Assembly: GCA_048886685.1 (NCBI GenBank)
Contig: JBHLKM010000011.1
Span: forward strand, 15,115-79,114
DNA from: Candidatus Hodarchaeota archaeon
GTDB lineage: Archaea > Asgardarchaeota > Lokiarchaeia > Sigyniarchaeales > SOKP01
Direction of reading: 5' to 3'
DNA: 64,000 bases
Below the pieces are notes generated by a model that saw nothing but the letters and a program-made list of their open reading frames with translations, made no database searches and was not told where the DNA came from. Position numbers and translations under genes: made by a program. Each line of letters starts with the position of its first letter. Within the stretch, counting starts at the first letter, position 1. Shown here one piece after another: positions 41,422-64,000 of this stretch.

Positions 41422-41456
41422 AAATTAAATTACTTAATTACTAATATAGAATCCAA

Positions 41457-43541
41457 ATGGAGAACATAACCTCCCATCCCATATTGAAAATACCTGAAAG
41501 AAAAAAGGTCAACTTTAGTTTTAACGACAAACAGTTATACGGATATAAAGGAATGGTAATCTCTTCAGCACTTTTTCTTAATAAGATCAAAATTTTTGGA
41601 CATCATGTTAAGGATTCAAGCCCTCAAGGAATTTTTTGCGCAAATGGGCAGTGTTCACAGTGTAATGTCATAGCTAATGGGATTCCGGTTAAAGCATGTA
41701 TGACTTCTCTCAGAGAAGGGATGATTATAGAAAGTTGTAATGGATTGCCAGAATTACCTGCTAAAGATGAACCAGTTAAGATAGGGGATCCTGAGATTAT
41801 TGATCTTGAAGTTCTAGTGATTGGTGCTGGCCCCGCAGGGTTATCTGCAACTAAAATCTTAGGAGAATCTAAACTTGAGGTTTTATTAGTCGATGATAAA
41901 GATAGACTTGGAGGTAAGTTAGTTCTTCAAACTCATAAATTTTTTGGTTCTCAAGAGGATGTTTATGCAGGGAAACGCGGTATTGAAATAGCAGAAATTC
42001 TTGGGCAATCCGTACTTTCATTAGAAAATGTTCAAGTTTGGCTTAATAGTGTGTGTTTAGCAGTTTTTAACGATGGGTATGTTGGAATTCTCAAAAATAA
42101 TAAGGAATATGTATTAGTTAAACCAAATTATCTTCTTGTTGCTACAGGGGCACGTGAAAAGATGTTAGTTTTTCCTGGTAATACTTTACCGGGAGTATAT
42201 GGTGCGGGGGCATTTCAAACATTAGTAAATCGTGATTTAATTAGAGCTGCTGAAAAAGTGTTTATTGTTGGAGGAGGAAATGTTGGTTTAATTGCAGGTT
42301 ATCATGCTATTCAGGCAGGAATCGAAGTTATTGGACTAATTGAAGCAATGCCTCAATGCGGGGGGTATAAGGTTCATGAAGATAAGTTAAGACGATTAGG
42401 TGTTCCTATTTTCACAAATCATACAGTAATCTCTGCAAATGGAGATAATAAAGTTGAGTCTATAACTATTGCTCAGATAAATAATGAATTTAAACCCATA
42501 TCTGGAACTGAAAAAACCTTTTCCTGCGATACTATCTTGATAGCAGTTGGTTTAAATCCAGTTGATGAGTTTTACCAAAAGGCAACGGAATATGGTTTAA
42601 AAGTTTGGGTCGCCGGAGATGCCCAAGAAATAGCAGAAGCTTCTGCAGCAATATTCACGGGTAAAATTGAAGCTTTAAAGATATTAAAAGAGATGGGAAT
42701 TAAAACAGAAGAGGATTTAAAAACCCTTCAGGAAATTTCTGAAGTTATGAAGTCAAAACCTCCACCCCCAATTGATGTAGACTTTACATATAAAGAAGAA
42801 GGTATTTTTCCAGTATTCTATTGTAATCAAGAAATACCTTGCAACCCTTGTACCACAGTATGCCCAAATCAACAGATTGAAACAATTGACAATTTAATTA
42901 CTCAATTGCCTTATTTTAAAGATGATCAAGAATGTATAGGATGTGGTAAATGTGTTGCTGTTTGTCCTGGGTTGGCAGTTGTGTTAAAGGATTACAGAAA
43001 GGATAAAAAAAATCCATCCGTAACGTTTCCTCTCGAACTCACCGAAAAAAGGCTTGAAAAAGGTCAAGAAATTGTTGTTACGAGTAATGATCAAGAATTA
43101 GGTCAATTTGAAGTCTATAGAGCAAGGATTCTAAAAGAATTTCCAAAAACTCAATTAATAACTGTTAAATTACCATCAGAAATAGCAAAACAAGCAGTTG
43201 CCATTAAATTATTTAAAAGCATGTATTCTGAGCCTATTGACATCTATCAAAAAGAATTTACTGATGACGCTACGATTGTTTGTAGATGTGAGCGTGTATC
43301 GGTTGGAGAGATACGTAAATGGATTCGTTCAGGTGTAAAGGATTTTAATGAATTAAAAGCTTTAACCAAAGTTGGAATGGGTGCGTGCGGTGGAAAAACT
43401 TGCACTCCTCTAATTAATAAAATATTTCAAGAGGAAGGTATTTCGATTGATGATATTATTCCTGGAACGAAACGCCCATTATTTATTGAAGTGCCGATGG
43501 GAATTTTTGCTAGTGCTAGAGAAAAAAAGGACTTGATATAA
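41457..43541 (+). CDS. Multidomain flavoprotein ([2Fe-2S] + FAD/NAD(P) + 2x[4Fe-4S] + BFD-like), proline/sarcosine dehydrogenase alpha-type
   Basis: CANGQCSQC..C, GAGPAG, ATGARE, GGGNVG, CNPCTTVCP, CIGCGKCVAVCP and CRCE..GMGACGGKTC. Confidence 0.85.
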   Translation: MENITSHPILKIPERKKVNFSFNDKQLYGYKGMVISSALFLNKIKIFGHHVKDSSPQGIFCANGQCSQCNVIANGIPVKACMTSLREGMIIESCNGLPELPAKDEPVKIGDPEIIDLEVLVIGAGPAGLSATKILGESKLEVLLVDDKDRLGGKLVLQTHKFFGSQEDVYAGKRGIEIAEILGQSVLSLENVQVWLNSVCLAVFNDGYVGILKNNKEYVLVKPNYLLVATGAREKMLVFPGNTLPGVYGAGAFQTLVNRDLIRAAEKVFIVGGGNVGLIAGYHAIQAGIEVIGLIEAMPQCGGYKVHEDKLRRLGVPIFTNHTVISANGDNKVESITIAQINNEFKPISGTEKTFSCDTILIAVGLNPVDEFYQKATEYGLKVWVAGDAQEIAEASAAIFTGKIEALKILKEMGIKTEEDLKTLQEISEVMKSKPPPPIDVDFTYKEEGIFPVFYCNQEIPCNPCTTVCPNQQIETIDNLITQLPYFKDDQECIGCGKCVAVCPGLAVVLKDYRKDKKNPSVTFPLELTEKRLEKGQEIVVTSNDQELGQFEVYRARILKEFPKTQLITVKLPSEIAKQAVAIKLFKSMYSEPIDIYQKEFTDDATIVCRCERVSVGEIRKWIRSGVKDFNELKALTKVGMGACGGKTCTPLINKIFQEEGISIDDIIPGTKRPLFIEVPMGIFASAREKKDLI

Positions 43542-43543
43542 CA

Positions 43544-44710
43544 ATGGTTGAATATGATGTAATTATCATAGGGGCTGGCAGCGTTGGTGTACCAACAGCT
43601 TTAGCAGGTGCAAATGATGGCCTTCGAATACTAGTTCTCGATTTATTACCTTCAGTTGCTCAAGGGGATAATAAACACGCAATAGGAGGAATCCGAGCGA
43701 CTCATTCCCACATAGGGAAAGCCTTACTTTGTCAAAGATCGATAGAGATCTTTTCTACATGGGAAGAAAAGTATGGGGATGATATTTGGTGGCATCAAGG
43801 GGGATATACTTTTTTAGCTTTTACGGAAGAAGATGAGAAAATGCTAAAAGATACCGTAAAACTCCAAAAAAAAAATGGTTTAAATATAAATTTTGTTGAT
43901 ACTGAGAAAATTAAAGAAATTATACCAGGGATTAATGATGATGGGTTATTAGGAGGAACATATAGTCCCGAAGATGGGAATGCTTCACCCTTATTATCTT
44001 TACATGCATTTTTTCGCCAGTCAAAAGAATTAGGTGCTGAATATCACTTTAATGAAAAAGTTAATAATATAATTATAAAAAAAGATAAAATTAGGGGAGT
44101 TAAAACAACCAAATCAAAATATAAAACTAATTTTGTTATTAATGCTGCTGGTGCTCATGCTAAACATATAGGTGCCATGGTTGGTGTCAATTTCCCCGTT
44201 GATCCTGAGTCTCATGAAGCAGGTATTACTGAACCTGTTAAAAAATTCTTTTCACCAATGGTGGTTGACGTTCGACCGTTTGTTGATGAAAAATTTGGAG
44301 GTTCTAAAAATTATTACTTTTATCAAAATGATGAAGGAAAGATATTATTTTGTTTGACCCCCAATCCAAACATTTTTGGTATTGACCGTAGAGAAACTAG
44401 CTCGTTTTTACCTCAAATTTCAAAAAGAATGGTTAAGCTTTTGCCTCGTTTAAGGAATTTAAAAATTAGAAGAACATGGCGCGGTTTATACCCAATGACG
44501 GTAGATGGGAATCCAATTGTAGGTAAGATTGATGAGGTAGATGGATATATTAACGCTATTGGAATGTGTGGGCAGGGTTTCATGTTAGGACCTGGTTTAG
44601 GAGAACTTATAGGTCGACTTCTAAATCAAAAATTGAACTCTCAAGACCATGAAATTTTAAAGAGTTTATCCTATAAACGTGAATATTTTAAAGAAGAAGT
44701 ATTAAAATAG
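43544..44710 (+). CDS. FAD-dependent amino-acid oxidoreductase (DAO family), proline dehydrogenase/sarcosine oxidase beta-type
   Basis: IIGAGSVG, NAAG, RTWRGLYPMTVDGNPIVG and GMCGQGFMLGP. Confidence 0.88.
   Translation: MVEYDVIIIGAGSVGVPTALAGANDGLRILVLDLLPSVAQGDNKHAIGGIRATHSHIGKALLCQRSIEIFSTWEEKYGDDIWWHQGGYTFLAFTEEDEKMLKDTVKLQKKNGLNINFVDTEKIKEIIPGINDDGLLGGTYSPEDGNASPLLSLHAFFRQSKELGAEYHFNEKVNNIIIKKDKIRGVKTTKSKYKTNFVINAAGAHAKHIGAMVGVNFPVDPESHEAGITEPVKKFFSPMVVDVRPFVDEKFGGSKNYYFYQNDEGKILFCLTPNPNIFGIDRRETSSFLPQISKRMVKLLPRLRNLKIRRTWRGLYPMTVDGNPIVGKIDEVDGYINAIGMCGQGFMLGPGLGELIGRLLNQKLNSQDHEILKSLSYKREYFKEEVLK
44184..44610 (+). repeat. Direct repeat copy 1 (427 bp)
   Basis: About 25 mismatches (hand count), no indels, versus 45734..46160. 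Confidence 0.95.
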
Positions 44711-47775: not shown

Positions 47776-48708
47776 ATGGTAAGGCATCTATTAAAAGTCT
47801 CTGATTTTTCAAAAGAAGAATGTAAAAGAGTTATTAGTAAATCTATTGAAATTAAGAAAAATCCTAAAAAATATGATAAAGAATTAGAAGGAGAAACTCT
47901 TTTAATGCTATTTGAAAAACCTTCACTGAGAACCCGAATTTCTTTTGAAACAGGTATGCAACAATTGGGTGGACATGCTATATTCTATTCAATCAAAGAT
48001 TCCCCTTTGGGTAAAAAAGAAAACATTAGTGATACAGCTAAAGTCGCATCAAGATTTGTCAACATAATAGCTGCTCGTGTCTTTAAAAGGCAAGATATTA
48101 GGGCTCTTGCAAAATATGCCGATGTTCCTGTTATTAACATGCTTGATGATTTTGCGCATCCATGTCAGATTCTTGGGGATTTTCAAACAATCAAAGAAAA
48201 GAAGGGAAGTCTTGATAACTTTAAATTATCCTATTTTGGAGATGCTAATAATAATGTTACCTATGACCTAATGAGGATGTGTGCAATGTTTGGTTTAAGA
48301 ATGGATGTTACTTGCCCTATTAATCCTGAATATTCACCTGAACAAATTGTTATAGATGAAGTATCAGAACTCTCCAAAGATAATGAGGCTGAAATAAAAG
48401 TAGTTCATGATGCACTTGAAGCTGCCAAAGATGCCGATGTGATATATACTGATAGTTGGATGAGTTATGGAATACCAGCAGAGCAAGAAGAAGAGCGAAA
48501 AAAAGCTTTTATGCCCTATCAAGTTACCTCTTCAATTATGCAAGCGGCTAAGCCAAACGCAATTTTTATGAATTGTTTGCCTGCAATGCGAGAATATGAA
48601 CAAACAGCTGATGTTATTGACGGACCACTATCAATTGTATTTGATCAGGCCGAAAATCGTCTACATATACAAAAAGCAATTATGCTCTTTTTACGAGAGA
48701 AATTTTAA
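47776..48708 (+). CDS. arcB: Ornithine carbamoyltransferase
   Basis: SLRT, HPCQ, GDANNNV, DSWMSYG, NCLP and QAENR. Confidence 0.93.
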   Translation: MVRHLLKVSDFSKEECKRVISKSIEIKKNPKKYDKELEGETLLMLFEKPSLRTRISFETGMQQLGGHAIFYSIKDSPLGKKENISDTAKVASRFVNIIAARVFKRQDIRALAKYADVPVINMLDDFAHPCQILGDFQTIKEKKGSLDNFKLSYFGDANNNVTYDLMRMCAMFGLRMDVTCPINPEYSPEQIVIDEVSELSKDNEAEIKVVHDALEAAKDADVIYTDSWMSYGIPAEQEEERKKAFMPYQVTSSIMQAAKPNAIFMNCLPAMREYEQTADVIDGPLSIVFDQAENRLHIQKAIMLFLREKF

Positions 48709-48939: not shown

Positions 48940-49854
48940 TTGAAAACATTGATTGTAGCACTGGGCGGGAATGCGCTAATCAAGTTTGGTGATGAAGGGA
49001 CAACAGAAGAACAATTTCGAAACTTACGAGTACCAATTAGTCAAATTGCGAAATTAGCAAAAGAATATAATATAATTATAACTCATGGTAATGGACCACA
49101 AGTAGGCAATCTCTTACTACAACAAGAAGCCACTCAAGCTGTTTCAAAAAGGCCATTACAAATTCTCGTAGCAGAGACGCAAGGTCAGATTGGTTTTATG
49201 ATAGAATCCACTCTAGATGAAGAATTAATGAAAATTGGTCTTGATGAAGAAAAACTCTTTCTTACTGTTCTTACATATGTGAAGGTGGACGCTGAAGACC
49301 CAGCATTTTTGAATCCAACTAAACCTATTGGCCCCGCTTATGATGTTCCAAAACCGGGATATGTGAAAACTGCAAAAGGTTATCGACGTGTAGTTCCATC
49401 GCCTAAACCTATTAAAATTTACCAGTGGCGTGAAATAAAAAAATTAATGGAATTAGGGAGTTGGATTGTAATCGCTTGCGGAGGTGGTGGTATTCCTGTA
49501 ATAAAAGAAAAAAAGAAATTATATGGGGTAGAAGCTGTAATTGATAAAGACCTAGCGAGCGCTAAATTAGCTGAACAAATTAATGCCGACATTTTATTAA
49601 TAGCAACCGATGTTGAAAAAGTTTCTCTTAATTATGGGACCTCAGACCAACAAGAATTAGACAAATTATCAATCTCTGAAGCAAAAAGGTATTTAGAAGA
49701 AAATCAATTCCCAGCAGGAAGTATGGGCCCAAAAATTCAAGCTGTAATAAATTTTTTGGAATCAGGTGGAGAAAAAGCAATAATAACGTCTATTGATAAA
49801 ATAATAGAAGCTTTAGATGGAACAGCGGGAACACACATTCATTCAAGTAATTAA
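48940..49854 (+). CDS. arcC: Carbamate kinase
   Basis: ALGGNAL, HGNGPQVG, PTKPIGP, RRVVPSP, EAVIDKD and GSMGPK. Confidence 0.95.
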   Translation: MKTLIVALGGNALIKFGDEGTTEEQFRNLRVPISQIAKLAKEYNIIITHGNGPQVGNLLLQQEATQAVSKRPLQILVAETQGQIGFMIESTLDEELMKIGLDEEKLFLTVLTYVKVDAEDPAFLNPTKPIGPAYDVPKPGYVKTAKGYRRVVPSPKPIKIYQWREIKKLMELGSWIVIACGGGGIPVIKEKKKLYGVEAVIDKDLASAKLAEQINADILLIATDVEKVSLNYGTSDQQELDKLSISEAKRYLEENQFPAGSMGPKIQAVINFLESGGEKAIITSIDKIIEALDGTAGTHIHSSN

Positions 49855-50435: not shown

Positions 50436-51695
50436 TTACTTGATCAATACTTTTTCAATAATTTCAATAGCCCAATCAATTTCTTCTCGAGTAATTACTA
50501 AGGGGGGGGCAAACCTAATTGTTGTAGAATGAGTATCTTTTGCTAAAATTCCATTGTCTTTTAATTCTTCAACAATTTGTCTTGCATCTTCAGTAAATTC
50601 TACAGCCACAAGTAGTCCTTTACCTCTTACATCTTTGATTGGAATTTTCGTTCTTTTTTCTGCAATTTCCTTAAGTCTCTTAATAAAGTAAGATCCCATC
50701 TCTTTTGATCGCTCAGCAAGATTCTCACGTAAATGAATGTCTATAGATTTCATTGCAACTGCACATGCTAAAGGATTTCCCCCAAATGTGCTTCCATGAG
50801 TTCCAGGTTTAATTACATCTGGTCCTATAATATCTTTAGTTGTAACACATGCAGAAACGGGATAAACGCCACCCCCCAGAGCTTTACCTAATAACAACAT
50901 GTCTGGTTTTACATTTTCATGATCACAGGCAAAAAGTTCACCAGTTCGACAAAAACCAGTTTGAATTTCATCTAACACCATCAAAATATTATATTTAGTA
51001 CAAATATCTCTAACTTTCTTCAAAAATCCTTCTGGAGGGACATTTACACCAGCTTCTCCTTGTATAGGTTCAAATAAAAAAGCAGCTACTTTTTCGGGTC
51101 CAGTTTCTAAAATAATATTCTCCAATTCTTCAGCGTCTCCGTAAGGTATCATAATAAATCCCGGAGTATATGGGCCAAAATTTCCATAATAACGAACTGC
51201 TGAAATATCGGAACTAAAGCCAACAATAGTTATTGTCCTACCATGAAAATTATTTCGACATACAATAATTTTAGCTTCATTTTTAGGGATTTTTTTCTTA
51301 ATATAACCCCAAGCTCTTGCCATTTTTAAACCTGTAGATACTGCTTCTGTTCCAGTGTTCATTGGAATGCTCATTATCCCAGAATTTGTTGGATCGTTGA
51401 TGTGTGGACCTACAACTTCAGCTAGCATTTTTAAAAAAGGTCCCATTAAATCATTATGAAAGGCTCGAGAAGTTAAGGTAACGATATCTGCTTGTTCTTT
51501 TAAAGCTGCGACAATTTCAGGATGACAATGACCAGTATTCTGGCTTGAATATGCTGATAAACAGTCCAAATATTTATTACCTTCTGGATCATACACCCAA
51601 ACTCCTTCTGCTCGGGAAATTACAACGGGAATAGGATGATAATTATGAGCACAATATTTCAAATCCATTTCAATATAATCTTTTGATGTTGGCAT
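50436..51695 (-). CDS. rocD: Ornithine--oxo-acid aminotransferase
   Basis: AHNYHPIP, LSAYS, LTSRAF, FHGRT, EPIQGEAG, DEIQTG, GKALGGG and HGSTFGGNP. Confidence 0.93.
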   Translation of the reverse strand: MPTSKDYIEMDLKYCAHNYHPIPVVISRAEGVWVYDPEGNKYLDCLSAYSSQNTGHCHPEIVAALKEQADIVTLTSRAFHNDLMGPFLKMLAEVVGPHINDPTNSGIMSIPMNTGTEAVSTGLKMARAWGYIKKKIPKNEAKIIVCRNNFHGRTITIVGFSSDISAVRYYGNFGPYTPGFIMIPYGDAEELENIILETGPEKVAAFLFEPIQGEAGVNVPPEGFLKKVRDICTKYNILMVLDEIQTGFCRTGELFACDHENVKPDMLLLGKALGGGVYPVSACVTTKDIIGPDVIKPGTHGSTFGGNPLACAVAMKSIDIHLRENLAERSKEMGSYFIKRLKEIAEKRTKIPIKDVRGKGLLVAVEFTEDARQIVEELKDNGILAKDTHSTTIRFAPPLVITREEIDWAIEIIEKVLIK

Positions 51696-51916: not shown

Positions 51917-54385
51917 ATGAAGAAAAAATTATGGATTTGGTTATTGTCAATAATAATATTGTTTCTAATTATTCCAATCACACCAACGAATGCATGTGGT
52001 TGGCGTTGGAATCGTAGAAAAATCACTATAATAAGAGATAACTATGGTGTTCCTCACATATATGCTAGAACAAAAGAAGGATTAGCATTTGGATGTGGTT
52101 ATGCTATGGCTCAAGATAGGCTATGGCAAGCAGATTTATATAGAAGAATTGCGTTTGGTAGCCTTGCTGAAATTAATCCTTTTGTATCTATAGATGATGA
52201 TTATGAGATTAGAACTTTGGGATATAGTAGGGAAGAACTCCTTGAAAATTTTGAGAATTGGGAACCAAAATATCCAAAGGCAAAACTTAAAGAAATGATG
52301 TTAGCCTATATAGAAGGTGTAAACCTTTACATTTCAGAAGCAACAACAGCGCTTGCTAAAGGAGATACATCTCTTATGCCCATGGAATATCTTGTATTTG
52401 ATGTACTACCAGAACCTTTTACAATTGAAGATAGTGTTGCGATTACAGTTATGATGGCTTGGCAATTTGGCTTATGTGGGGGAGGTGAGCTCGGTTTGGC
52501 TGCTAGTTACCTAGCTCTTGCCAGTAAGTATGGACCAGCCCTTGGAATGGAAATATTCAATGATCTTTACCCTCAAGTCGATCCAGGAGCTCCAACAACA
52601 ATTCCAAGCACTGGATGCTATGGTCCTAAATGTGGAGGTTATTATAGTATACCTTCGCTACCTGGCAATATTGGGAAAATATACAAGAAATATGAAGCCA
52701 CCAAGATGGGTCACGATCAGTTATTAGAATCAATGGGTATACCTACAAAATTTGGAAGTAATGCATGGATGGTTAATCCATGGAAATCTGAAACTGGAAA
52801 CGCAATGCAATTAGGAGGACCACAAATGGGACACTCAACTCCTCAAATTGTTTTGGAAGTTGGGTTGCATGGTGCTGGAATTGATGCTGTTGGTATGATG
52901 ATGCCCCAAGCACCGTCCATCTTGATTGGTGTAAGTCAACATGGTGCGTGGACCTCAACCACAGGTTCTTCAGATAACGCTGACACATACATTGAAATGT
53001 TGAATCCTGGTAATCCTTACCAATATTGGTACAATGGTGGATGGGTTGACATGGAAAAAAGAACAGAAATAATTTATGGTTATAAGAAATTATATAGTGA
53101 ACCAAGAGATATTTATCGTACGGTTCATGGCCCTATCATTGCTTGGGATTTAGATAACAATCTTTGTTATTCCATGAAAGTATCATGGTACAAGAATGAG
53201 TTAGCAGCTGAAGAGGGTTGGTCTCTCTTTCAACAAGCAGAAGATATCTGGGATATGCAAGAAGCTTGTAAACTCGTAGATCTAAGTCATAACTTCTATT
53301 GGGTAGATAGAAAGGGAAATATTGGATACTGGCACTCTGGTAAGTACCCAATTAAACCAACTTCTGGTGTTGGGGGGAGAATAATAGATGATAGGTTCCC
53401 TCTAAACGGAACAGGGGAAGAAGAATGGGTTGGTGTTACGGGTTTTGATGAGATGCCAAGGTGCATCAATCCTAAACAAGGTTATCTTGCCAATTGGAAC
53501 AACAAACCAATTGCTGATTGGCCATATCGAGAAGCTGATTGGGGCGAAGTTCATGGCGTTGGATGGATACAGGAGCAATTAGCAATGGGGGGTAAAATTT
53601 CATTTAAAGACATGGAAGATATCAACCGTGATACTGGATATGCACATTATGCTGGAAAGTATTTCCTTGATTTTCTCATAAATGCGGCTAAAGGTGATTC
53701 AAGTATTCCAGCCGAAGTTATAGATGTTCTTGAAGCATGGGATTGGCACTATAATGATGTAGAATATCCGAAATATCCTGATGATCCTGATCCTACCTAT
53801 GATGATCCCGGTCTGACTATCTTTGATAAATGGTTTGAAAAGGTTGATAATGCAGTATTTGATGATGATTTACCTCCTGGTGTAGGAGGCGGTGCTAGCA
53901 CACTTCTTCATGTTTTCGACGGAGTAGATTCAAAATTAGCACTTAATTTTGATTATCTTGGTGAGGAACCTCGTGATACTCTGATAGTTCGAGTGTTGAA
54001 AGAAGCTCTTGCTGAATTAGAATTAGAATATGGATCAAGTGATGTATCAGATTGGCTCACTGATGTTCGAATAACAAAACTTACATCGCAAGGAGCTCTA
54101 CCTACACCTGAAATGCATACTATGAACCGAGGAACTTATAATCACATAGCAGAAATGCCAAAATGGCGATGGTGGCATAGATGTAGGCGCCCTGATCCTA
54201 TTGCAGTAAACGTTATCCCTCCTGGACAAAGCGGATTCATAACCTTAATAGATGGTGTGCCTTATATAAGTCCTCATTGGAATGATCAACTTGAGTTATA
54301 TGACACCTGGACATATAAACCCGTACGTTATTGTTTTAGGGCTAACTGGAAAGTAAGAGAATCAGTTACGCGTCTACGGTATTAA
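51917..54385 (+). CDS. Secreted penicillin acylase family Ntn hydrolase
   Basis: Signal peptide; RDNYGVPHIY, AQDRLWQ, GSNAW (nucleophile Ser), RTVHGP, NWNNKP and PPGQSG. Confidence 0.92.
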   Translation: MKKKLWIWLLSIIILFLIIPITPTNACGWRWNRRKITIIRDNYGVPHIYARTKEGLAFGCGYAMAQDRLWQADLYRRIAFGSLAEINPFVSIDDDYEIRTLGYSREELLENFENWEPKYPKAKLKEMMLAYIEGVNLYISEATTALAKGDTSLMPMEYLVFDVLPEPFTIEDSVAITVMMAWQFGLCGGGELGLAASYLALASKYGPALGMEIFNDLYPQVDPGAPTTIPSTGCYGPKCGGYYSIPSLPGNIGKIYKKYEATKMGHDQLLESMGIPTKFGSNAWMVNPWKSETGNAMQLGGPQMGHSTPQIVLEVGLHGAGIDAVGMMMPQAPSILIGVSQHGAWTSTTGSSDNADTYIEMLNPGNPYQYWYNGGWVDMEKRTEIIYGYKKLYSEPRDIYRTVHGPIIAWDLDNNLCYSMKVSWYKNELAAEEGWSLFQQAEDIWDMQEACKLVDLSHNFYWVDRKGNIGYWHSGKYPIKPTSGVGGRIIDDRFPLNGTGEEEWVGVTGFDEMPRCINPKQGYLANWNNKPIADWPYREADWGEVHGVGWIQEQLAMGGKISFKDMEDINRDTGYAHYAGKYFLDFLINAAKGDSSIPAEVIDVLEAWDWHYNDVEYPKYPDDPDPTYDDPGLTIFDKWFEKVDNAVFDDDLPPGVGGGASTLLHVFDGVDSKLALNFDYLGEEPRDTLIVRVLKEALAELELEYGSSDVSDWLTDVRITKLTSQGALPTPEMHTMNRGTYNHIAEMPKWRWWHRCRRPDPIAVNVIPPGQSGFITLIDGVPYISPHWNDQLELYDTWTYKPVRYCFRANWKVRESVTRLRY

Positions 54386-54721: not shown

Positions 54722-55513
54722 TTAATCTAATTCTTTTCTTCTTACAAGTTCTTTTATAAAAAAAGATGCGACAATCTCAGCATAAGTACCGGGACCAAAA
54801 CCAGCGTCGTATCCTAATTCTTTTGCTAATTCATTACTTATTCTGGCACCACCACAGATGAGAATTACTTGATCTCTTATTCCTTCAGCCTCTAATAGTT
54901 CAACTAATTCGGTTAGGTTTTTCACATGAATATCTTTTTGTGTGACTGTTTGTGAAACTAATAAGACATCTGCTTTTAGTTCTATTGTTCTTTTGACAAA
55001 CTCTTCATTTGAGACTTGGCTTCCTAAATTATAAGTTTCTATCATTTCATATTGTTCAAGACCATGATGTCCAGTAAAACCTTTCATGTTAATAATTGAA
55101 TCAATTCCTACTGTATGAGCATCTGTTCCTGTTGATGCTCCAAGAATAACTAACTTACGTCCTATCTTTTCTTTTATGAAATTATTAATATCTTCTTTAG
55201 ACATAACATTTACTTCTACAGTTTCTACTTGAATTTTAGTATAATCGATTGTATGAATTGACTTTCCATAAATTACAAAAAATGTGAATCCTTTGTCTAG
55301 CGCAGAATGATATGCTATTTCAGGATCTTTCAACCCCATTTTTTTTACAAGTTCTTTAGCTGCTTCAATTGATTTTTCATCATTATCAACTGGAAGTGTA
55401 AAACTTAATTGTACCTTTCCATCGTTCATTGTATCTCCATAAGGTTTAATTCTTGTTATATCAAGATTCTTATCAAAAGTTTCCTTTCCAGTTGGATTTG
55501 GCCCGCCTCCCAT
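54722..55513 (-). CDS. kamE: Beta-lysine 5,6-aminomutase beta subunit (B12-binding)
   Basis: KPYGDTMNDGKVQLSFTLP, DAHTVG cobalamin motif, NMKG PLP-Lys, SQTVTQKD. Confidence 0.95.
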   Translation of the reverse strand: MGGGPNPTGKETFDKNLDITRIKPYGDTMNDGKVQLSFTLPVDNDEKSIEAAKELVKKMGLKDPEIAYHSALDKGFTFFVIYGKSIHTIDYTKIQVETVEVNVMSKEDINNFIKEKIGRKLVILGASTGTDAHTVGIDSIINMKGFTGHHGLEQYEMIETYNLGSQVSNEEFVKRTIELKADVLLVSQTVTQKDIHVKNLTELVELLEAEGIRDQVILICGGARISNELAKELGYDAGFGPGTYAEIVASFFIKELVRRKELD

Positions 55514-55514
55514 T

Positions 55515-57104
55515 TTAGTTCCCTCCTTTTGTTAATTCTCTAATCATAAGTTCGATAAATGGATTAAAATAATCTTTCTCTTTCTTAATTACACCATCTA
55601 ATCCTTTACCACCATCTAACGGTCTTTTAATTCCAGCGAAGATTCCTTTTTCAATAGTTCTAAACAAACCTTGTTCTTCGATTTCCTTTAATAAATCATA
55701 AGCCTTGTTAAGAACATTATCGACTCTTCTTTGCATTATTCCCCCACTCTTAAATACTATTTCTTCACTGATAGACTTCATATTATTGAACACATAACGA
55801 GCATTTTCAATAGATAATGCTCTATCTGACATAAAGGGCGTATGTATTGCTTCTGTTAACATACCAAGGAGGTGAATTTTTTGATTCGTCATAATAGTAA
55901 TCATATTAAATAAAGCATCTTGAATATGACCTTTGAATATATTTCCTGTCATATATTTAGTTGGAGGCATGTATTTAAGTGGAGCATTAGGAAAAATCTC
56001 TCGTGTCATTTGAGCTTGTGCTAATTCATATAAAAATCCGTTTTCTAAATCAGGATTCATCTCAAATGCATGACCTAATCCCATTTGTTCTTCTCTTAAT
56101 CCTGCGAGTAAAGCAAATTGTTCATTAATAAATTCAGAAGCAAGAACTGTGTGGGCTGCTTCAAATGCATCGGCTGTAGTTAAGTAGTTATCTTCTCCAG
56201 TATTTATGATTACACCAGCATAAGCATTTATCATTCTTGAAAAGTACTGGTCAATAATAGTTCTTTTCATATTAATATCACGGAATAAAATCCCATAAAG
56301 AGCATCGTTTAACATCATATCAACCCTTTCAAAAGCACCTATAGCAGCAATTTCCGGCATACATAAACCAGAGCAATAATTAGTTAGTCTTATATATCTC
56401 CCTAATTCTTCACTCACTTCATCTAAAGCCTTTCTCATAAGTCGAAAATTTTCTTGAGTAGCATATGTTCCGCCAAATCCTTCTGTTGTTGGACCAAAAG
56501 GAACATAATCGAGTAAACTTTGCACTGTAGATCTAATAACAGCAATTACATCTGCACCTTGTTTTGCTGCAGCTTGAGCTTGAATAATATCCTCATAAAT
56601 ATTTCCTGTGGCTACAATAACATATATTAAAGGCCCTTCCTTATCACCATATTTTTTAAGCAATTCTTCTCTCTTTTTTCTATTTTGAGATATTAGTAAT
56701 AATGATTCTTGAGCAATGAGATTTACAGTTGCTTCGATCTCGGATCGATCTTTTAATGGTAATTGGGTTAAATCTAATTCTTCCTTAGTTACTTTTTCTG
56801 CTATCTCTTGCGGTGAAAGACTTGTATGCAATATAGCATTACCAATATAAGTAGCAGCACCAACATTAAGACCATTTCCCTTTTTGATATTTTCAACAAC
56901 AACATTAGCTAAAGGAACATCAAATTCATCTACACCATCTATACCAAATAATCTGCAGACAGTTCTTTCAATTGTGGTAGTAGTATGTTGATCGATGAAT
57001 TTCTGGGTATCTAACGCAATGACTTTCGCTGCTTCTCTTGCTTTCTTAACAATTGAAAAATCTAAATTCAATTTACTTTTTCGGTTTATTTCTTTTTCCT
57101 CCAC
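55515..57104 (-). CDS. kamD: Beta-lysine 5,6-aminomutase alpha subunit
   Basis: YVIVATGNIYED, SLLDYVP, NYCSGLCMPE, NTGEDNYLTT and KYMPPTK. Confidence 0.95.
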   Translation of the reverse strand: MEEKEINRKSKLNLDFSIVKKAREAAKVIALDTQKFIDQHTTTTIERTVCRLFGIDGVDEFDVPLANVVVENIKKGNGLNVGAATYIGNAILHTSLSPQEIAEKVTKEELDLTQLPLKDRSEIEATVNLIAQESLLLISQNRKKREELLKKYGDKEGPLIYVIVATGNIYEDIIQAQAAAKQGADVIAVIRSTVQSLLDYVPFGPTTEGFGGTYATQENFRLMRKALDEVSEELGRYIRLTNYCSGLCMPEIAAIGAFERVDMMLNDALYGILFRDINMKRTIIDQYFSRMINAYAGVIINTGEDNYLTTADAFEAAHTVLASEFINEQFALLAGLREEQMGLGHAFEMNPDLENGFLYELAQAQMTREIFPNAPLKYMPPTKYMTGNIFKGHIQDALFNMITIMTNQKIHLLGMLTEAIHTPFMSDRALSIENARYVFNNMKSISEEIVFKSGGIMQRRVDNVLNKAYDLLKEIEEQGLFRTIEKGIFAGIKRPLDGGKGLDGVIKKEKDYFNPFIELMIRELTKGGN

Positions 57105-57139
57105 TTATCTCACTTTTTTTTAATAAAAATTCTAAAAAT

Positions 57140-58174
57140 TTAATCATTAACTCCAAGATTATAAACAGGAATTTTTAATTTCTCTTGTAGTGATTTTAAA
57201 AACTTATTTTTATCAAATTCGTATCCATACGGAGAAGTTGGGTTTATGGTTATTGCTATTATATTTATAGGATTTAAAACTTTTAAAATTCCACCCTTTT
57301 TGAGGAATTTTTTTGTTGTATTTTGACTTAAAAATAATTTTGTACCATCTTCCACTAAAAAAGTAATTCCTTTATACTTTTGCGTGGATTTCATCAAGCC
57401 TTCTAAGAGTTTATCTGTGACAGCACCATTTATTATTACATATTGAGAATCATCATCTAAATTTGCACTGATATTATAAGCAGAATCTAAAGCTGTTGCT
57501 ACATTTAAAGAATGTATCTTATTATTCTTATCAATAATACTCACTTTTGATTCATTTAAGAGAATTTTCGAGAGTTTTTTAATTTCTAAGTTTTTCTCTT
57601 GCTCTAAATTTAATAAATTAATAGTATGAGCTGTTAAATTAATCACTTCATTCATATTTCTTGATACAGAAGCGCCTGTTGAAAGAATTGTAGCATCCGA
57701 AATTAAAGGTGTAGCATATGCTCTCCTGTCAAATGCTCCATCCACTAAAATAAGATCACAACCTAACTTCCTTAATTCTAAACAAATTATCATTAAATGC
57801 TTATTTATTGAAGGTCCAGCTAATTCAATATAGCCTTCACTTAGGGCTTTTAAAATCATAATTTCCCCTAAAGGAGTATTGAATCCTGTCTTTTGAATTA
57901 TTTCAAATTTAATTTGGCTCTCTTCATAGCATTGTTGGGCTGTTACTACATAAGTTCCTTTCTTTACATATATCTGAGGTTTTGGCAATTCAGTAATAAC
58001 ATCGTACTTTTCACCATCTCTCCCTATTGAAGTAATCCCTAATGTAATTTGCTCTCCAATATTTCTTATAATAAAATTTAGTGTAGTTGTTTTACTCACA
58101 TTTTTAGCGAGCCCTATTATTGAGATTATTTTTTGTTGGTCAATTCTATTTAAAATCTCAGATAATAAGTCCAT
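57140..58174 (-). CDS. kamB: KamB-like aminomutase accessory/reactivase subunit
   Basis: GLAKNVSKTT P-loop-like motif, TSIGRDGE, ELAGPS, DGAFDR; lies between kamA and kamD. Confidence 0.72.
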   Translation of the reverse strand: MDLLSEILNRIDQQKIISIIGLAKNVSKTTTLNFIIRNIGEQITLGITSIGRDGEKYDVITELPKPQIYVKKGTYVVTAQQCYEESQIKFEIIQKTGFNTPLGEIMILKALSEGYIELAGPSINKHLMIICLELRKLGCDLILVDGAFDRRAYATPLISDATILSTGASVSRNMNEVINLTAHTINLLNLEQEKNLEIKKLSKILLNESKVSIIDKNNKIHSLNVATALDSAYNISANLDDDSQYVIINGAVTDKLLEGLMKSTQKYKGITFLVEDGTKLFLSQNTTKKFLKKGGILKVLNPINIIAITINPTSPYGYEFDKNKFLKSLQEKLKIPVYNLGVND

Positions 58175-58282
58175 TTTCTCCCCAAAAGAAATATTATACT
58201 CATTAGTAAATGATATAAAACGTAATTATTTAAATTTTGAATATAAATTATCAAATACAATACTAATTATTTGCTATACTAA

Positions 58283-59521
58283 TTATTTAGTAAGGTTTTT
58301 TCTACGAGATTTTCTAAGGAGATCTTCAGGTTCAATTGTTATTTTTTGACCACTTAATAATGCACTGACACCAATCTGTTTTCCACAATCTTCACAATGA
58401 CAATTGGGGAAATAATCGTCTGGTTCCTCATATGTAGTTATAACTCCTTCGAAATTTCTTAATACGACACGGGTATTTCCTTGAGAGATAGTATAATCCG
58501 GCATCACAGGAATTTTTCCTCCGCCCCCAGGAGCATCAACAACGAAAGTTGGAACACATAATCCCGAAGTATGACCTCTCAAACCTTCAATAATTTCAAT
58601 ACCTTGAGCTACACTGGTCCTAAAATGTCCAAGTCCAAGAGAAAGATCACATTGATAAACGTAATAAGGCCTTACTCTAATCTTTACTAATCCTTGCACT
58701 AATTTTTTCATTACATGAATACAATCATTTACGCCTCTTAATAAAACCGATTGATTGCCTAGAGGAATTCCAGAATCAGCTAACATTTCACACGCCTTCG
58801 TGGAATCTTCTGTAATTTCATTTGAATGGTTAAAGTGAGTATTAAACCAAATAGGTTGATACTTTTTTAGCATTTCACATAATTCTGGGGTGATTCGGAA
58901 CGGATTTGTCACCGGTGCTCTAGACCCAATGCGTATTATTTCTACATGAGGTATTTCTTTTAACTGCTTTAGAATTTCTTCCATTGTTTTATTAGAAATT
59001 AATAATGCATCACCACCAGATAAAAGTACATCCCTTATAGAAGGATTTTGTCGAATATATTCTATACATTCGTCTATTTGCGATTGTGGAGGTGCCATAT
59101 CATGATGTCCAGCAAACCTTCTTCTTGTACAATGTCTACAATACATCGAACAGTTTTCTGTAACTAATAATAATACTCTGTCTGGATACCGATGAGTTAA
59201 TCCTTCTACGGGAGAATCTACATCTTCACTTAAAGGATCTTCAAGGTCACCAGTATATCTTTCTAACTCGTGAATTGTTGGAATTGCTTGTTTTCTAATG
59301 GGATCATAGGGATCATCAGGATCGATTAATGATAAGTAGTAGGGCGTAATTGCCATCCTATACTCTTGTAGAATTCTTGGATCGTCTTCTTCTTTGGTTA
59401 GTTTGATATATTTTTTAAGTTCTTCCAAAGTTGTTATTCTATTTTTAACTTGCCATTTCCAATCATTCCAATCCTCATCACTTACATGAGAAAATATTTC
59501 CTTTCTTCTATTGACTTTCAT
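58283..59521 (-). CDS. kamA: Lysine 2,3-aminomutase (radical SAM)
   Basis: [36 protein letters not shown] and C-terminal CHCEDC. Confidence 0.96.
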
Positions 59522-59608
59522 AATAATAAATTAAAACTCTAATTCGAATCTTATTAAGATAAAGAATTCATAAACTAAAAATTTTGCTTAAATTGATGAT
59601 TTATATCA

Positions 59609-60652
59609 TCAATTTTTTGCATATTTCTCTTCAAATATCTTTCTTAAGACACTTGATTCTCGGAGTAGATCTAATGCTATCTGGTCATGGTTTTTTGTGT
59701 ATCCATTACCAATAATCATAGACACATCTTTTCCTACACCCTCTGCTCCAAGTGCAGCTTTAGTAAAGCTAGTAGCCATGGAAAAGAAATATACTATTCC
59801 ACCATCTCTAACAGGAAGAATGCAGGATAATTCTGTATTAGGAATACTTAGACAGTTTATTGAAATGTCAACTTCATTTCCATTATTTACTTCTAAAGTC
59901 TTATTTAGCACATCCGTGGGCTGATAAACATCAGCAATTATAACTTCATGACAAAAATCAGTATTACGCAAAAATTTTGCTCTTTTTTCATTTCTGGCTT
60001 GACCAATAACCTTTCCTTTTTTTCCAACTAATTTCTTAGCAACATAGGAGCACATTAATCCAGACTTGCCTGTTGCCCCTAAAATTAAAACTATATTTCC
60101 AGGCTTCACTAATTTTTGGACCTGAGCAGGTGCTCCTGCCACATCTAATACTGCTAATGCTAATGTATCATCCATATCTTCAGGAAGTTTGCCATAAATA
60201 CCACTTTCAAAAAGAATCGCTTTTCCTTCAATTTCTACTCTATCGATATTTGGATTAACATCTAAAATTTTATCAATTCGTAGTGGTGTCAAGGAAAGTG
60301 AAACTAATGTAGCAATCTTATCCCCTTCTTTTATTTTGACCTTATCCCTCAATGAGTCTCCAATTTTCTCAACTTTTCCAATAAGAATACCCCCAGAACC
60401 AGTAACAGGATTTTGCATTTTACCTCTTTCATTTACAATTTCCATTATTTTCGCTTTAACTTTTTCAATATCTCCTTTCGCTTCTTCTTCAAGTTGCGTA
60501 AAACTAGCAGAATCAATATTAAGGTAGTCAACGTCGATCAAAATTTCATTATTAAATATCTCCATATCGTTTGATATTATTAATGCGGGTTGTGGAAGTG
60601 TTCCTTTAGGTTCAATTACTCTATGAGTCCCATACTTATTTCCTTTTCTCAT
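59609..60652 (-). CDS. kdd: L-erythro-3,5-diaminohexanoate dehydrogenase
   Basis: YGTHRVIEPKG, NIDSASF, GKMQNPVTGSGG, LVSLSLTPL, DVAGAP and FFSMATSF. Confidence 0.95.
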   Translation of the reverse strand: MRKGNKYGTHRVIEPKGTLPQPALIISNDMEIFNNEILIDVDYLNIDSASFTQLEEEAKGDIEKVKAKIMEIVNERGKMQNPVTGSGGILIGKVEKIGDSLRDKVKIKEGDKIATLVSLSLTPLRIDKILDVNPNIDRVEIEGKAILFESGIYGKLPEDMDDTLALAVLDVAGAPAQVQKLVKPGNIVLILGATGKSGLMCSYVAKKLVGKKGKVIGQARNEKRAKFLRNTDFCHEVIIADVYQPTDVLNKTLEVNNGNEVDISINCLSIPNTELSCILPVRDGGIVYFFSMATSFTKAALGAEGVGKDVSMIIGNGYTKNHDQIALDLLRESSVLRKIFEEKYAKN

Positions 60653-60689
60653 AATAATCCTCCTTTGATAATTTTCTATTTTCTATTTA

Positions 60690-61406
60690 TTATGATTTTA
60701 TACCTATATACAGACCTCTTCCTTCCATTAATCCATCTTTCAAAAATTCTGCTTGGAAACCAGCATCATTCATTATCTCTAAAAACTTATCGATCTCAAA
60801 AAGCCCAACTTCATGTTTATCAACAAAATATTTAACCTCTTTATCTCGTTCGAGAATTAAATAATGCATTTCCATAATCGAGACATCATTCTCTAATGCG
60901 GTTGTATTTAGTCTAGCAATTTTTATGTTTTCTCCATCATATGTAGTCATTCCAAGGTGTCCTACCTGATATGTTGATTTAGTAAACCACGGTTCAATAA
61001 TTACGACTCCGCTTGATTTTAAATGATTCCCAAAGTTTATAATTGTTTTTTCTAAGTTATCATAAGTTTTTACATATCCAATTGAACTAAATAGACAGGT
61101 TATTACATCGAATTTATCATTTAAAGAAAAATTTATCATATCCACCGTTTTAAAATCAACATCACTAAGACTATTTTTTGCTGCATTTATCATTTCATCA
61201 TTTATGTCAATACCAGTGCAAGAGAAATTTTCTCTAAAATATTCTAAATGTTTTCCTGTTCCACAAGCTACATCAAGTAACTTGTTCCCATCGGATTTTT
61301 TATACTTTTTAATTAGTTTATTAATACTATTAACTTCCTTCTTATAATCCTTCCAAGAATAAATAAGATCATAATACTTTGCTAATTCTTTATACATCAT
61401 TATCAT
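60690..61406 (-). CDS. Class I SAM methyltransferase (TylM1/DesVI-like pattern)
   Basis: YYDLIY, LLDVACGTG, TCLFSSIGY and IEPW. Confidence 0.85.
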   Translation of the reverse strand: MIMMYKELAKYYDLIYSWKDYKKEVNSINKLIKKYKKSDGNKLLDVACGTGKHLEYFRENFSCTGIDINDEMINAAKNSLSDVDFKTVDMINFSLNDKFDVITCLFSSIGYVKTYDNLEKTIINFGNHLKSSGVVIIEPWFTKSTYQVGHLGMTTYDGENIKIARLNTTALENDVSIMEMHYLILERDKEVKYFVDKHEVGLFEIDKFLEIMNDAGFQAEFLKDGLMEGRGLYIGIKS

Positions 61407-61427
61407 TTATATTAATAGGTAATATGA

Positions 61428-62252
61428 TTATAATAAACCTAAGATTTTACGTGCCTCATTTGGGGATGCAATATCTCTACCATTTTTATTTGCCATATTA
61501 ACAACTTTTTGTACTAACTCCCCATTTGACCTAGCTAATACACTTTTTGAAATATATATGTTATCTTCAAAGCCTACTCGTGCATGACCTCCTCTTCTAA
61601 TAGCGATTTCTACCATTGGAAATTCATACTTACCAATCGCACAAACTGTATATGTTGAATTTTTAGGTATGCTTTCTATGAGAAAGATTAAATCGCGAGG
61701 GGTAGCGGTTATTCCCCCAATAACTCCTAGAACAAAATTGAAATGCATTGGTTCTTTAATATATCCCTTTTTATGTAATCTTAATGCCATATCAATCATT
61801 CCTTTATCAAAACATTCTAATTCATATTTTATACCAATTCTATTCATCTCTTTGGCAAAATATATTATAGTATTTTCTGTATTCACAAAAATTTCATCCC
61901 CACCAAAGTTCATTGTCCCACAATCTAAAGTTGCCATCTCCGGAGGAGGTTCCATATATATTGGCTGTAATCTTTCTTCATTACTCATTCCAATCGCACC
62001 ACCAGTGGATGGCTGAATAATAATCTCGGGGCATCGCTTTTTGATTTCTTCAATACACACCTTAAATCGTTCTTCATTTTGAGTAGGAGTACCGTCATCT
62101 TCTCTAACATGTAAATGAATGATACTCGCTCCAGCCTTATATGCTGATTCTGCTTCTCTTCCAATTTCTTCTACTGTATATGGCACATTTTTATTATGTT
62201 CTTTGGTAACTTCAGCACCACATATAGCAGCTGTAATTATGAGTTTTTCCAT
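61428..62252 (-). CDS. kce: 3-keto-5-aminohexanoate cleavage enzyme
   Basis: LIITAAICGAE, IIHLHVR, QPSTGG, TLDCGTMNFG, ELECFD and GHARVGFEDN. Confidence 0.93.
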   Translation of the reverse strand: MEKLIITAAICGAEVTKEHNKNVPYTVEEIGREAESAYKAGASIIHLHVREDDGTPTQNEERFKVCIEEIKKRCPEIIIQPSTGGAIGMSNEERLQPIYMEPPPEMATLDCGTMNFGGDEIFVNTENTIIYFAKEMNRIGIKYELECFDKGMIDMALRLHKKGYIKEPMHFNFVLGVIGGITATPRDLIFLIESIPKNSTYTVCAIGKYEFPMVEIAIRRGGHARVGFEDNIYISKSVLARSNGELVQKVVNMANKNGRDIASPNEARKILGLL

Positions 62253-62264
62253 TATAATTCATAC

Positions 62265-63452
62265 TTAGATAATATTTTCCTTATACATTTCTCCAATATC
62301 TTTTTCATTATAACCTAAATCAAGTAATATATCTTTTGTATGTTGGCCTAAAACAGGTGGTGCGGTTAAGATTTCTCCGGGAGTGTCAAAAAGTTTTAAA
62401 GGAACGCCAGTGACCTTTATTTTTCCTGCTTTTGGGTGATCAAGTTCTTGCACCATTTTCCTGTGCAACACTTGAGGATCACTGAATAATTTATCCATAG
62501 TATAAATCGGTCCACAAGGAACCCCAGCTTTAGTTAAGATATTGAGCCATTCTGCTGCTTCTTTAGTACAAATGAGATTTTCAATAATTTTTACAACTTC
62601 TTCCCTATTTCTAACCCTCATGGAATTAGTTGCATATTTTGGATCATTCATTATTTCTTCTAAACCAACAGCTTTACAGAATTTCTCCCATAATTGATCA
62701 TTGCCAACCGCCAAATTGAAATAGGTATCTTTTGCTTTAAACGCTTGATATGGAACAATCACTGGGTGACCAGATCCCAAAGGTTTCGGAATCTCTCCAG
62801 ATACGAAGAAAGATCCTGCTTGATATGTTAACCAAGCAACTTGGTTGTCTAGTAACGAATTATCTATTTTTTGACCCTTTCCAGTTTTTTGTCTATAAAA
62901 AAGCGCAACCATAATTCCATATGCAGCAAACATCCCCCCAGCGATATCTGCAACTGCTACACCAACCTTTATTGGAGGTCCATTCGGTTCCCCTGTAATA
63001 CTCATTAATCCCCCCATACCTTGTAATACCTGATCCATACCAGGTAATAATCGATATGGGCCATCTTGACCAAATCCTGAAATACTACAATAAATTATCT
63101 TTGGATTTATTTCTTTTATTTCTGTATAGCTTAGTCCCAACTTCTCCATAGTACCAGGTCGGAAATTTTCGACAATGACATCTGATTGCTTAATCAAATT
63201 ATGAACAATTTCCGTACTTCTTTCTTTTTTTAAATTTAATGTCATGCTTTTTTTATTACGATTAACACTTATAAAATAAGCACTTTCTCCTTCTTGAAAT
63301 GGAGGTCCCCAAGCTCGAGAATCATCTCCACTTCCTGGCATTTCTAATTTAATTACTTCAGCGCCCATATCTGCTAGCATCATTGTACAATATGGACCTG
63401 CAAGAGCCCTTGATAAATCTAAAACTTTTATTCCCTCAAGTGGTCTAACCAT
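62265..63452 (-). CDS. Class III CoA transferase (CaiB/BaiF)
   Basis: LAGP, LADMGAEVIK, NRNKKS, ENFRPG and catalytic Asp in VADIAGG. Confidence 0.92.
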   Translation of the reverse strand: MVRPLEGIKVLDLSRALAGPYCTMMLADMGAEVIKLEMPGSGDDSRAWGPPFQEGESAYFISVNRNKKSMTLNLKKERSTEIVHNLIKQSDVIVENFRPGTMEKLGLSYTEIKEINPKIIYCSISGFGQDGPYRLLPGMDQVLQGMGGLMSITGEPNGPPIKVGVAVADIAGGMFAAYGIMVALFYRQKTGKGQKIDNSLLDNQVAWLTYQAGSFFVSGEIPKPLGSGHPVIVPYQAFKAKDTYFNLAVGNDQLWEKFCKAVGLEEIMNDPKYATNSMRVRNREEVVKIIENLICTKEAAEWLNILTKAGVPCGPIYTMDKLFSDPQVLHRKMVQELDHPKAGKIKVTGVPLKLFDTPGEILTAPPVLGQHTKDILLDLGYNEKDIGEMYKENII

Positions 63453-63461
63453 AGAATTTTT

Positions 63462-64000
63462 TCACTTGGTCAATTTTTTGCATTCAATTAATGATTCATT
63501 AATCATATCTGCTGCATAATCTAGATGATCATTTGTATGCCGATAACAAATATAGCCATGATGAAAGGGTTGGAGAAAAACTTTACGGCGAATTAGCTGT
63601 CTGTAAAATTCTTCTCGTAATTTTTTATATAAAAGATTGGGGTCACGCTCAAATGTAATATATGGCATCCAAGGTGCTCCAGAGAATACACATGGGATAT
63701 CGCTTTCTTCGATCAAGTCTATTACTTTTTTTGCGAATTCATTTCCTTTTTTACTTATATTCTCTAACACTTTTTCACGTTCTAAAATCTCTATTGTTTT
63801 AAGTGATGCAATTTGTGCTAAACTATTAGGGAAAAAAGTTGAACTAAGAAACACATCCTCGACTAATACATCCATAACCTTTTGTTTCCCACCAAGGAAA
63901 CTAATCGGGTAACCATTTGCCATTGCCTTTCCAAAAGCAGCAAGATCAGGTATAACATTAAAAAATTTTTGGGCTCCTCCGAGGTCAAATCGAAAACCAG
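63462..64000 (-). CDS. kat: HemL-like class III aminotransferase, probable 3-aminobutyryl-CoA aminotransferase (5' truncated by window edge)
   Basis: The frame is open to the window edge: GFRFDLGGAQ..PDLAAFGKAMANGYP (PLP-Lys)..LSSTFFPNS; lies at the head of the lysine operon. Confidence 0.65.
   Translation of the reverse strand, partial: GFRFDLGGAQKFFNVIPDLAAFGKAMANGYPISFLGGKQKVMDVLVEDVFLSSTFFPNSLAQIASLKTIEILEREKVLENISKKGNEFAKKVIDLIEESDIPCVFSGAPWMPYITFERDPNLLYKKLREEFYRQLIRRKVFLQPFHHGYICYRHTNDHLDYAADMINESLIECKKLTK

Follow-up and report, generated by a model that had tools for sequence, protein, structure and literature searches.

The question raised by this locus is whether an archaeon ferments lysine with an aminotransferase in the place where the canonical route uses an ammonia lyase. 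The locus lies in a 64,000-nucleotide stretch of DNA from Candidatus Hodarchaeota archaeon (hereafter the window; contig positions 15115-79114). Nine open reading frames (ORFs) at its positions 54722-64000 had been interpreted, from the sequence alone, as a lysine fermentation operon with a 3-aminobutyryl-coenzyme A (CoA) aminotransferase (Kat) and without the ammonia lyase for 3-aminobutyryl-CoA (Kal). Archaeal lysine fermentation is already known in its Kal form from an Asgard isolate, MK-D1, for which the supplement of the respective paper lists kamA/D/E, kdd, kce and kal (PMC7015854). The Kat route is known from bacteria only so far (PMC3149608). What is new here is the archaeal Kat form, together with the Kal/Kat dimorphism at one operon slot; literature linking Kat to Asgard archaea, or describing this dimorphism, was not found in the main texts of the searchable literature. 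With good confidence, the operon is predicted to encode L-lysine fermentation via 3,5-diaminohexanoate in the Kat variant.

Operon composition and identity of the aminotransferase

The cluster of nine co-oriented genes was present where the sequence-only reading had placed it, and the identities of the genes were assigned by profile scores as follows:

54722-55513, minus strand: kamE; NF052385, 398 bits (cut-off 280); OAM_dimer and B12-binding domains.
55515-57104, minus strand: kamD; NF052384, 927 bits (cut-off 600); PF09043, 905 bits.
57140-58174, minus strand: kamB, lysine 5,6-aminomutase reactivase subunit; NF052386, 418 bits (cut-off 210).
58283-59521, minus strand: kamA, radical-S-adenosylmethionine (SAM) lysine 2,3-aminomutase; TIGR03820, 606 bits (cut-off 525); LAM_C and Radical_SAM domains.
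59609-60652, minus strand: kdd, L-erythro-3,5-diaminohexanoate dehydrogenase; NF052381, 271 bits (cut-off 200).
60690-61406, minus strand: class I SAM-dependent methyltransferase; Methyltransf_25/23/11 matches.
61428-62252, minus strand: kce; NF052387, 433 bits (cut-off 382); PF05853, 345 bits.
62265-63452, minus strand: family III (CaiB/Frc/SUGCT-like) CoA-transferase; PF02515, 467 bits.
63462-64000 in the window, minus strand, full gene to window-equivalent position 64715 (L004:77-1330): kat, 3-aminobutyryl-CoA aminotransferase candidate; PF00202, 181 bits.

In the direction of transcription, the order is kat, family III CoA-transferase, kce, SAM methyltransferase, kdd, kamA, kamB, kamD and kamE, with a spacing of 1-108 bp (1, 35, 108, 87, 37, 21, 12 and 9 bp from the kamE end to the kat end). 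Since 450 bp separate the aminotransferase gene from the next gene upstream, the operon most likely begins at the aminotransferase gene. KamA, KamB, KamD, KamE, Kdd and Kce all scored above the curated NCBIfam equivalog cut-offs, and this set includes the five proteins by which the 3,5-diaminohexanoate route is recognized (KamA, KamD, KamE, Kdd and Kce). KamA possesses the radical-SAM motif CxxxCxxC, as CSMYCRHC, at residue 124, and KamE the motif DAHTVG (DxHxxG) at residue 131. The methyltransferase, the CoA-transferase and Kat had no matching curated equivalog model.

The kat gene codes for 417 aa, with the C-terminal 178 aa inside the window and the rest past its edge. The full protein scored 271 bits against the hemL model TIGR00713 (cut-off 527) and was likewise below the cut-off of every other HemL model. 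The Schiff-base lysine K263 in AFGKAMANG aligns with the pyridoxal phosphate (PLP) lysine (GK) of the glutamate-1-semialdehyde aminotransferase (GSAM) 3bs8; the GSAMs of the PDB scored 155-213 bits against the protein. In a library clustered at 50% identity, IMG's name for the representative of its own cluster (57% identical) is '3-aminobutanoyl-CoA transaminase', and the next cluster shows only 43% identity.

Homologues were sought in species-representative genomes, and the gene neighbourhoods of the best 80 of at least 593 loci were determined by tblastn with the window proteins. Among these 80 loci, members linked to kce/kdd/kamA/D/E occurred in Bacteroidales, some Cloacimonadota, Riflebacteria, Elusimicrobiota, Bacillota, Treponema, Bdellovibrionota and Lentisphaerota. 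In Cloacimonadaceae-like members, a thiolase gene lies immediately upstream of the aminotransferase gene; the characterised Kat has this arrangement as well (CLOAM0809/CLOAM0810; PMC3149608). In a maximum-likelihood tree of 99 sequences, the Kat family was monophyletic with respect to the nearest outgroups (98 in the Shimodaira-Hasegawa-like approximate likelihood-ratio test, SH-aLRT). The 14 Asgard sequences were placed together with those of Cloacimonadota, digester Bacteroidales, Elusimicrobiota and Bdellovibrionota within one clade (SH-aLRT 99), while a Desulfobacterota block was separate (SH-aLRT 99). The aminotransferase is 62-66% identical to the Cloacimonadota and Bacteroidales members of the Kat lineage; the two assayed Kats share about 65% identity (PMC3149608).

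By definition, Kat (EC 2.6.1.111) transaminates 3-aminobutyryl-CoA with 2-oxoglutarate and accepts CoA esters only (PMC3149608). The gene context expected of a Kat was found, i.e., the same operon as kce/kdd/kam, one CoA-transferase gene between kat and kce, and a genome without kal. Comparison of the full-length protein thus supported the earlier proposal that the HemL-like aminotransferase belongs to the Kat lineage and not to HemL: it scored below the HemL cut-off and was placed inside the Kat-lineage clade.

The observation that the window is devoid of kal could be extended to the whole genome by profile models and tblastn. The best match to the Kal model NF052388 had 12 bits (E 0.58; cut-off 160), the bifunctional Kal-Kce model NF052389 matched via its Kce half only, with none for the Kal half, and tblastn with Kal from an Asgard relative yielded a best E of 0.42. 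The DNA beyond the window edge contained the rest of the aminotransferase gene, an ORF of 526 aa (ORF526) and unrelated genes, but no hotdog-fold gene.

Kal and Kat at one operon slot

The distribution of the two forms was determined in 300 genomes sampled across the Asgard phylum; because of the kinship among these genomes, the counts are meant as a description and do not amount to a statistical test. KamD was found in 49 genomes from two families of one order (42/67 genomes of family f1, 6/7 of family f2, and the host genome as the 49th) and in 0/226 genomes elsewhere. True Kal above the cut-off was present in 17 genomes and a Kat-like protein (E <= 1e-100) in 34. The 49 KamD-positive genomes comprised 30 with Kat, 16 with Kal and three with neither, the latter being 84-90% complete, and Kal and Kat occurred together in none of the 300 genomes.

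Both families contained both forms, as did three genera, among them that of the host. The congeneric genomes G170 and G254 possess the same operon with kal in the kat slot. The layout common to 14 fetched loci was ORF526-[kal or kat]-(CoA-transferase)-kce-(methyltransferase)-kdd-kamA-kamB-(kamC, f2 only)-kamD-kamE. Thus, kal and kat are alternative occupants of one operon slot in this Asgard order.

In the KamD tree, all Asgard sequences formed one clade (SH-aLRT 99) in which Kal-type and Kat-type genomes were interleaved, and well-supported branches force at least two kal/kat switches. The Asgard Kat and KamD clades were nested among bacterial sequences, and the pathway occurred in one Asgard order only among the 300 genomes. 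These trees and this restriction fit the transfer from bacteria that had been suspected from the sequence alone, and it appears plausible that the genes were acquired from bacteria and then inherited vertically, with replacements at the slot. Because the trees are unrooted and contain no bacterial Kal-type clusters, they do not prove in which direction the transfer took place.

A more far-reaching interpretation can be offered tentatively. The slot might act like a cassette that has been switched repeatedly, even within a genus, with the choice between Kal and Kat setting the redox mode, so that the dimorphism would mark dependence on syntrophy; family f1 would in addition run its lysine 5,6-aminomutase without KamC. 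If so, Kal would stand for self-balanced butyrate formation. Kat would stand for up to three acetate, about twice the ATP from substrate-level phosphorylation, two extra reducing equivalents and a stronger need for an H2- or formate-consuming partner. The dimorphism offers a testable handle on the need of these organisms to export H2. Syntrophic degradation of amino acids is the way of life of their only well-studied isolates, and current models of eukaryogenesis build on it.

The Kat form, not the Kal form, is found in many Lokiarchaeia-type genomes, and its recognition corrects metabolic reconstructions; the public names of these aminotransferases are 'aspartate aminotransferase family protein' or 'glutamate-1-semialdehyde aminotransferase', never Kat. 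A bacterial enzyme characterised once, in 2011, is now extended to archaea. This is an incremental extension of known biochemistry and involves no new mechanism.

Predicted pathway and rival readings

Judged by family membership, KamA would convert lysine to beta-lysine, and KamDE, together with the reactivase subunit KamB, would convert beta-lysine to 3,5-diaminohexanoate. Kdd would form 3-keto-5-aminohexanoate and NAD(P)H, and Kce, using acetyl-CoA, would yield 3-aminobutyryl-CoA along with acetoacetate. In place of Kal, Kat is predicted from its orthology and gene context, and because kal is absent, to transfer the beta-amino group to 2-oxoglutarate, yielding acetoacetyl-CoA and glutamate. 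Genes elsewhere in the genome could account for the remaining steps. Glutamate dehydrogenases are encoded, which would regenerate 2-oxoglutarate. Acetoacetate could be activated by the family III CoA-transferase of the operon or by one of three AtoAD-like CoA-transferase pairs, and thiolase together with the many ADP-forming acyl-CoA synthetases (ACD) would generate acetate and ATP. From the pathway chemistry, the stoichiometry would be Lys + 4 H2O -> 3 acetate + 2 NH3 + 2 H2, with a net yield of two acetyl-CoA and about 2 ATP by substrate-level phosphorylation, as compared to one in the Kal/butyrate route.

Two NAD(P)H would be left over, which could be disposed of as H2 or formate for a partner or used for reduction of one acetoacetyl-CoA to butyrate via Hbd, crotonase and acyl-CoA dehydrogenase with EtfAB (Acd-EtfAB). 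The genome encodes six Hbd-like dehydrogenases, a crotonase, a thiolase, three EtfAB pairs, two of which adjoin acyl-CoA dehydrogenases, and two [NiFe] hydrogenase large-subunit candidates. Since Hbd, crotonase and acyl-CoA dehydrogenase/EtfAB are present, acetoacetyl-CoA would still be reducible to butyrate; for the Kat route, Perret et al. likewise suggested that butyrate is formed from acetoacetyl-CoA (PMC3149608). The notion that lysine is degraded to acetate without a crotonyl-CoA/butyrate electron sink is therefore not supported by the gene content of the genome. The syntrophic lifestyle that this notion had been said to fit is plausible but is not dictated by the operon. MK-D1 is obligately syntrophic.

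The closest known system is the Kat route of 'Ca. Cloacimonas acidaminovorans' and digester Bacteroidetes (Perret et al. 2011, PMC3149608). It shares with the window the set of kamA, kamDE, kdd and kce and the lack of kal, and on a digester Bacteroidetes contig a HemL-like class III aminotransferase gene likewise occupies the kal position next to kce (PMC3149608). As in Cloacimonas, the organism lacks the porphyrin pathway and the aminotransferase belongs to the same clade, with the identities to lineage members given above. The system described here differs in its Asgard host, in the absence of kamC, in an Asgard-specific SAM methyltransferase gene between kce and kdd, and in a family III CoA-transferase in the operon instead of atoAD; moreover, Hbd and crotonase, which Perret et al. 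did not find in Cloacimonas (PMC3149608), are present in the host genome. With the canonical Kal route (Fusobacterium nucleatum and Clostridium sticklandii per PMC3149608; MK-D1), the upper pathway to 3-aminobutyryl-CoA is shared. In contrast to the elimination to crotonyl-CoA by Kal, the following step in the host would be a transamination to acetoacetyl-CoA, by which reducing equivalents are produced, not consumed.

Four other explanations were weighed. If the contig were bacterial contamination in the bin, the operon would not be archaeal. The source assembly (4.42 Mb, 47 contigs, about 31% GC, estimated as 100% complete) is not clean, with an estimated 8.4% contamination, and its pathway genes are 50-78% identical to bacterial counterparts. 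A search of the genome with RF01959 yielded no small-subunit rRNA, and the taxonomy of the host rests on homologue names and kinship within the genome collection. The sequencing runs listed for it are DNA from sediment metagenomes, two of them perhaps the source, and include no RNA run. However, the 169-kb contig has a GC content of 31.6%, matching the genome, and all homologues of the aminotransferase with more than 72% identity are from Asgard metagenome-assembled genomes named Promethearchaeota, Lokiarchaeota, Thorarchaeota or Hodarchaeota. Dozens of genomes placed in the genus, family and order of the host possess this cluster too, together with the archaeal-only neighbour ORF526; the single-contig or near-closed genomes G212 and G146 are among them. 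Since the close homologues are from Asgard archaea only and the cluster recurs in kin, a bacterial contaminant contig is very unlikely; the host is an Asgard (Promethearchaeota) archaeon. The aminotransferase could also be a true HemL that feeds tetrapyrrole/B12 synthesis for KamDE, which requires a corrinoid. HemL and GSAM are indeed its best NCBIfam and PDB matches, and the class III PLP fold and the aligned active-site lysine are shared. In contrast, the scores are far from the HemL cut-off and low against solved GSAMs, gene context and clade are other than those of HemL, and the tree grouped the protein with Kat instead of the outgroups. Furthermore, the HemA partner is missing: the best match in the genome to hemA (glutamyl-tRNA reductase, TIGR01035) reached 22 bits (cut-off 209.55), and no genomic protein was above the HemL cut-off. 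The absence of the porphyrin pathway was the argument used by Perret et al. for the Cloacimonas aminotransferase not being HemL (PMC3149608). A HemL function is hardly conceivable under these circumstances.

Production of beta-lysine or derivatives as an osmolyte or other product, instead of lysine catabolism, would agree with the match of KamA to the AblA equivalog TIGR03820 and with the methyltransferase gene embedded in the cluster. Since the acetyltransferase gene ablB is missing, and KamDE, Kdd and Kce, all above their equivalog cut-offs, are specific to the degradative route, this alternative is highly improbable. A Kat-family enzyme with another substrate deserves more attention, although it too is unlikely. 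The enzyme might act on another beta-aminoacyl-CoA or, via the adjacent family III CoA-transferase, on a free beta-amino acid, and 3-aminobutyryl-CoA would be left to an unrecognised enzyme. In favour of this, the Desulfobacterota clade of the same family has a different gene context, family III CoA-transferase genes lie directly beside the aminotransferase gene in the Desulfobacterota loci L057, L060 and L086, and Perret et al. doubted the Kat function of the NaphS2 homologue (PMC3149608). However, the window protein falls in the kam-linked clade and outside that of Desulfobacterota, and kat takes the position of kal in congeneric genomes. In addition, the 46 KamD-positive genomes that have Kal or Kat never combine the two, and the CoA-transferase is missing from nearly all other Asgard Kat-type clusters.

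Several points weigh against lysine fermentation by the Kat variant. All enzyme functions are predicted here from sequence, and orthology to CLOAM0809 is by proxy, with syntenic Cloacimonadota and Bacteroidales sequences standing in for it. The Desulfobacterota sister clade comprises 35 homologues, 53-57% identical, with no kam genes nearby, and therefore the substrate is not fixed by family membership alone. Genomes G082, G098, G152 and G257 carry a Kat-like gene without detectable KamD, two of them being 99-100% complete; some lineages may retain Kat in the absence of the upper pathway, or assembly gaps may have split the cluster. The reactivase ATPase KamC (NF052383), partner of KamB, was not found in the cluster, and its best match in the genome was a 961-aa MutS-like ORF (207 bits; cut-off 300). 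While bacterial and f2 Asgard clusters possess KamC (484 and 465 bits), it is absent from all f1 clusters examined, and the upkeep of KamDE without it may therefore differ or be impaired. The absence of hemA in the genome profile search implies that corrinoids are not synthesized de novo via the C5 route. Finally, to our knowledge, no family III CoA-transferase is known to act on acetoacetate.

Lineage-specific and neighbouring genes

The CoA-transferase resembles the SUGCT/CaiB type in that PF02515 was matched over its full length (profile positions 1-366 of 366) and in that the nearest solved structure is SUGCT (succinate-hydroxymethylglutarate CoA-transferase; 9br7, 391 bits). It differs from this type by scores below every NCBIfam equivalog cut-off (best, succinate-glutarate CoA-transferase with 401 vs 750 bits) and by its placement in a lysine operon, which is peculiar to the host lineage and one close relative. 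Inside the cluster, the gene was found only here and in the closest relative (L100), and outside the cluster a close homologue was present in 1/99 other genomes of the family, on another contig. Thus, the in-operon CoA-transferase gene is a lineage-specific insertion between kat and kce. That its product activates acetoacetate is a guess.

About half of the Asgard clusters, Kal-type and Kat-type alike, carried the methyltransferase gene between kce and kdd (L100, L125, L128, L129, L131, L134, L136, L138 and L139); in bacterial loci it was not detected by tblastn. Its product did not reach any NCBIfam model, and the protein atlas returned generic class I methyltransferases only.

ORF526 (526 aa, minus strand, window-equivalent positions 65166-66746, L004:1781-3361) lies just past the window end, upstream of kat. 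It precedes the slot in the host and in 12/15 fetched f1 and unclassified archaeal loci covering the region, with 59-86% identity; no ORF526 was detected in L128, L136 and L138, or in two f2 loci, where kamC is found instead. ORF526 shows no similarity to KamC, and no Walker A motif was seen in the A2 consensus. No Pfam or NCBIfam family was matched even at E 1, and the atlas matches were archaeal-only hypothetical clusters. The AlphaFold2 model was poor (predicted local distance difference test, pLDDT, 63; predicted template modelling score, pTM, 0.36) and consisted mostly of one long helix/coiled-coil.

The stretch just downstream of the lysine operon contains the following genes:

47776-48708: ornithine carbamoyltransferase.
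48940-49854: carbamate kinase-type amino-acid kinase.
50436-51695, minus strand: second class III aminotransferase; PF00202, 415 bits.
51917-54385, plus strand, convergent with kamE: 822-aa penicillin-amidase family protein (Ntn hydrolase), far below the PvdQ equivalog cut-off.

Together with the lysine operon, the first three of these genes suggest an island of amino-acid catabolism (arginine/ornithine). Further away, at 32328-34163 and 39226-44710, the window codes for a 611-aa ATP-citrate-lyase-like fusion of Ligase_CoA and citrate-synthase domains, an aldehyde:ferredoxin oxidoreductase of 731 aa, a protein of 694 aa in which 2Fe-2S, FAD and 4Fe-4S domains are combined, and an FAD oxidoreductase of the DAO family.

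In the Kat-family loci of the Desulfobacterota sister clade, hosted by Syntrophales/Desulfobacterales-type genomes, a saccharopine-dehydrogenase-like gene lay directly upstream in three of the four loci scanned (L047, L054, L057 and L063). A gene for a molybdopterin oxidoreductase (xanthine-dehydrogenase family) was alongside, also in three of the four, and L057 in addition carries EtfAB. These loci look like an uncharacterised acyl-CoA transaminase pathway.

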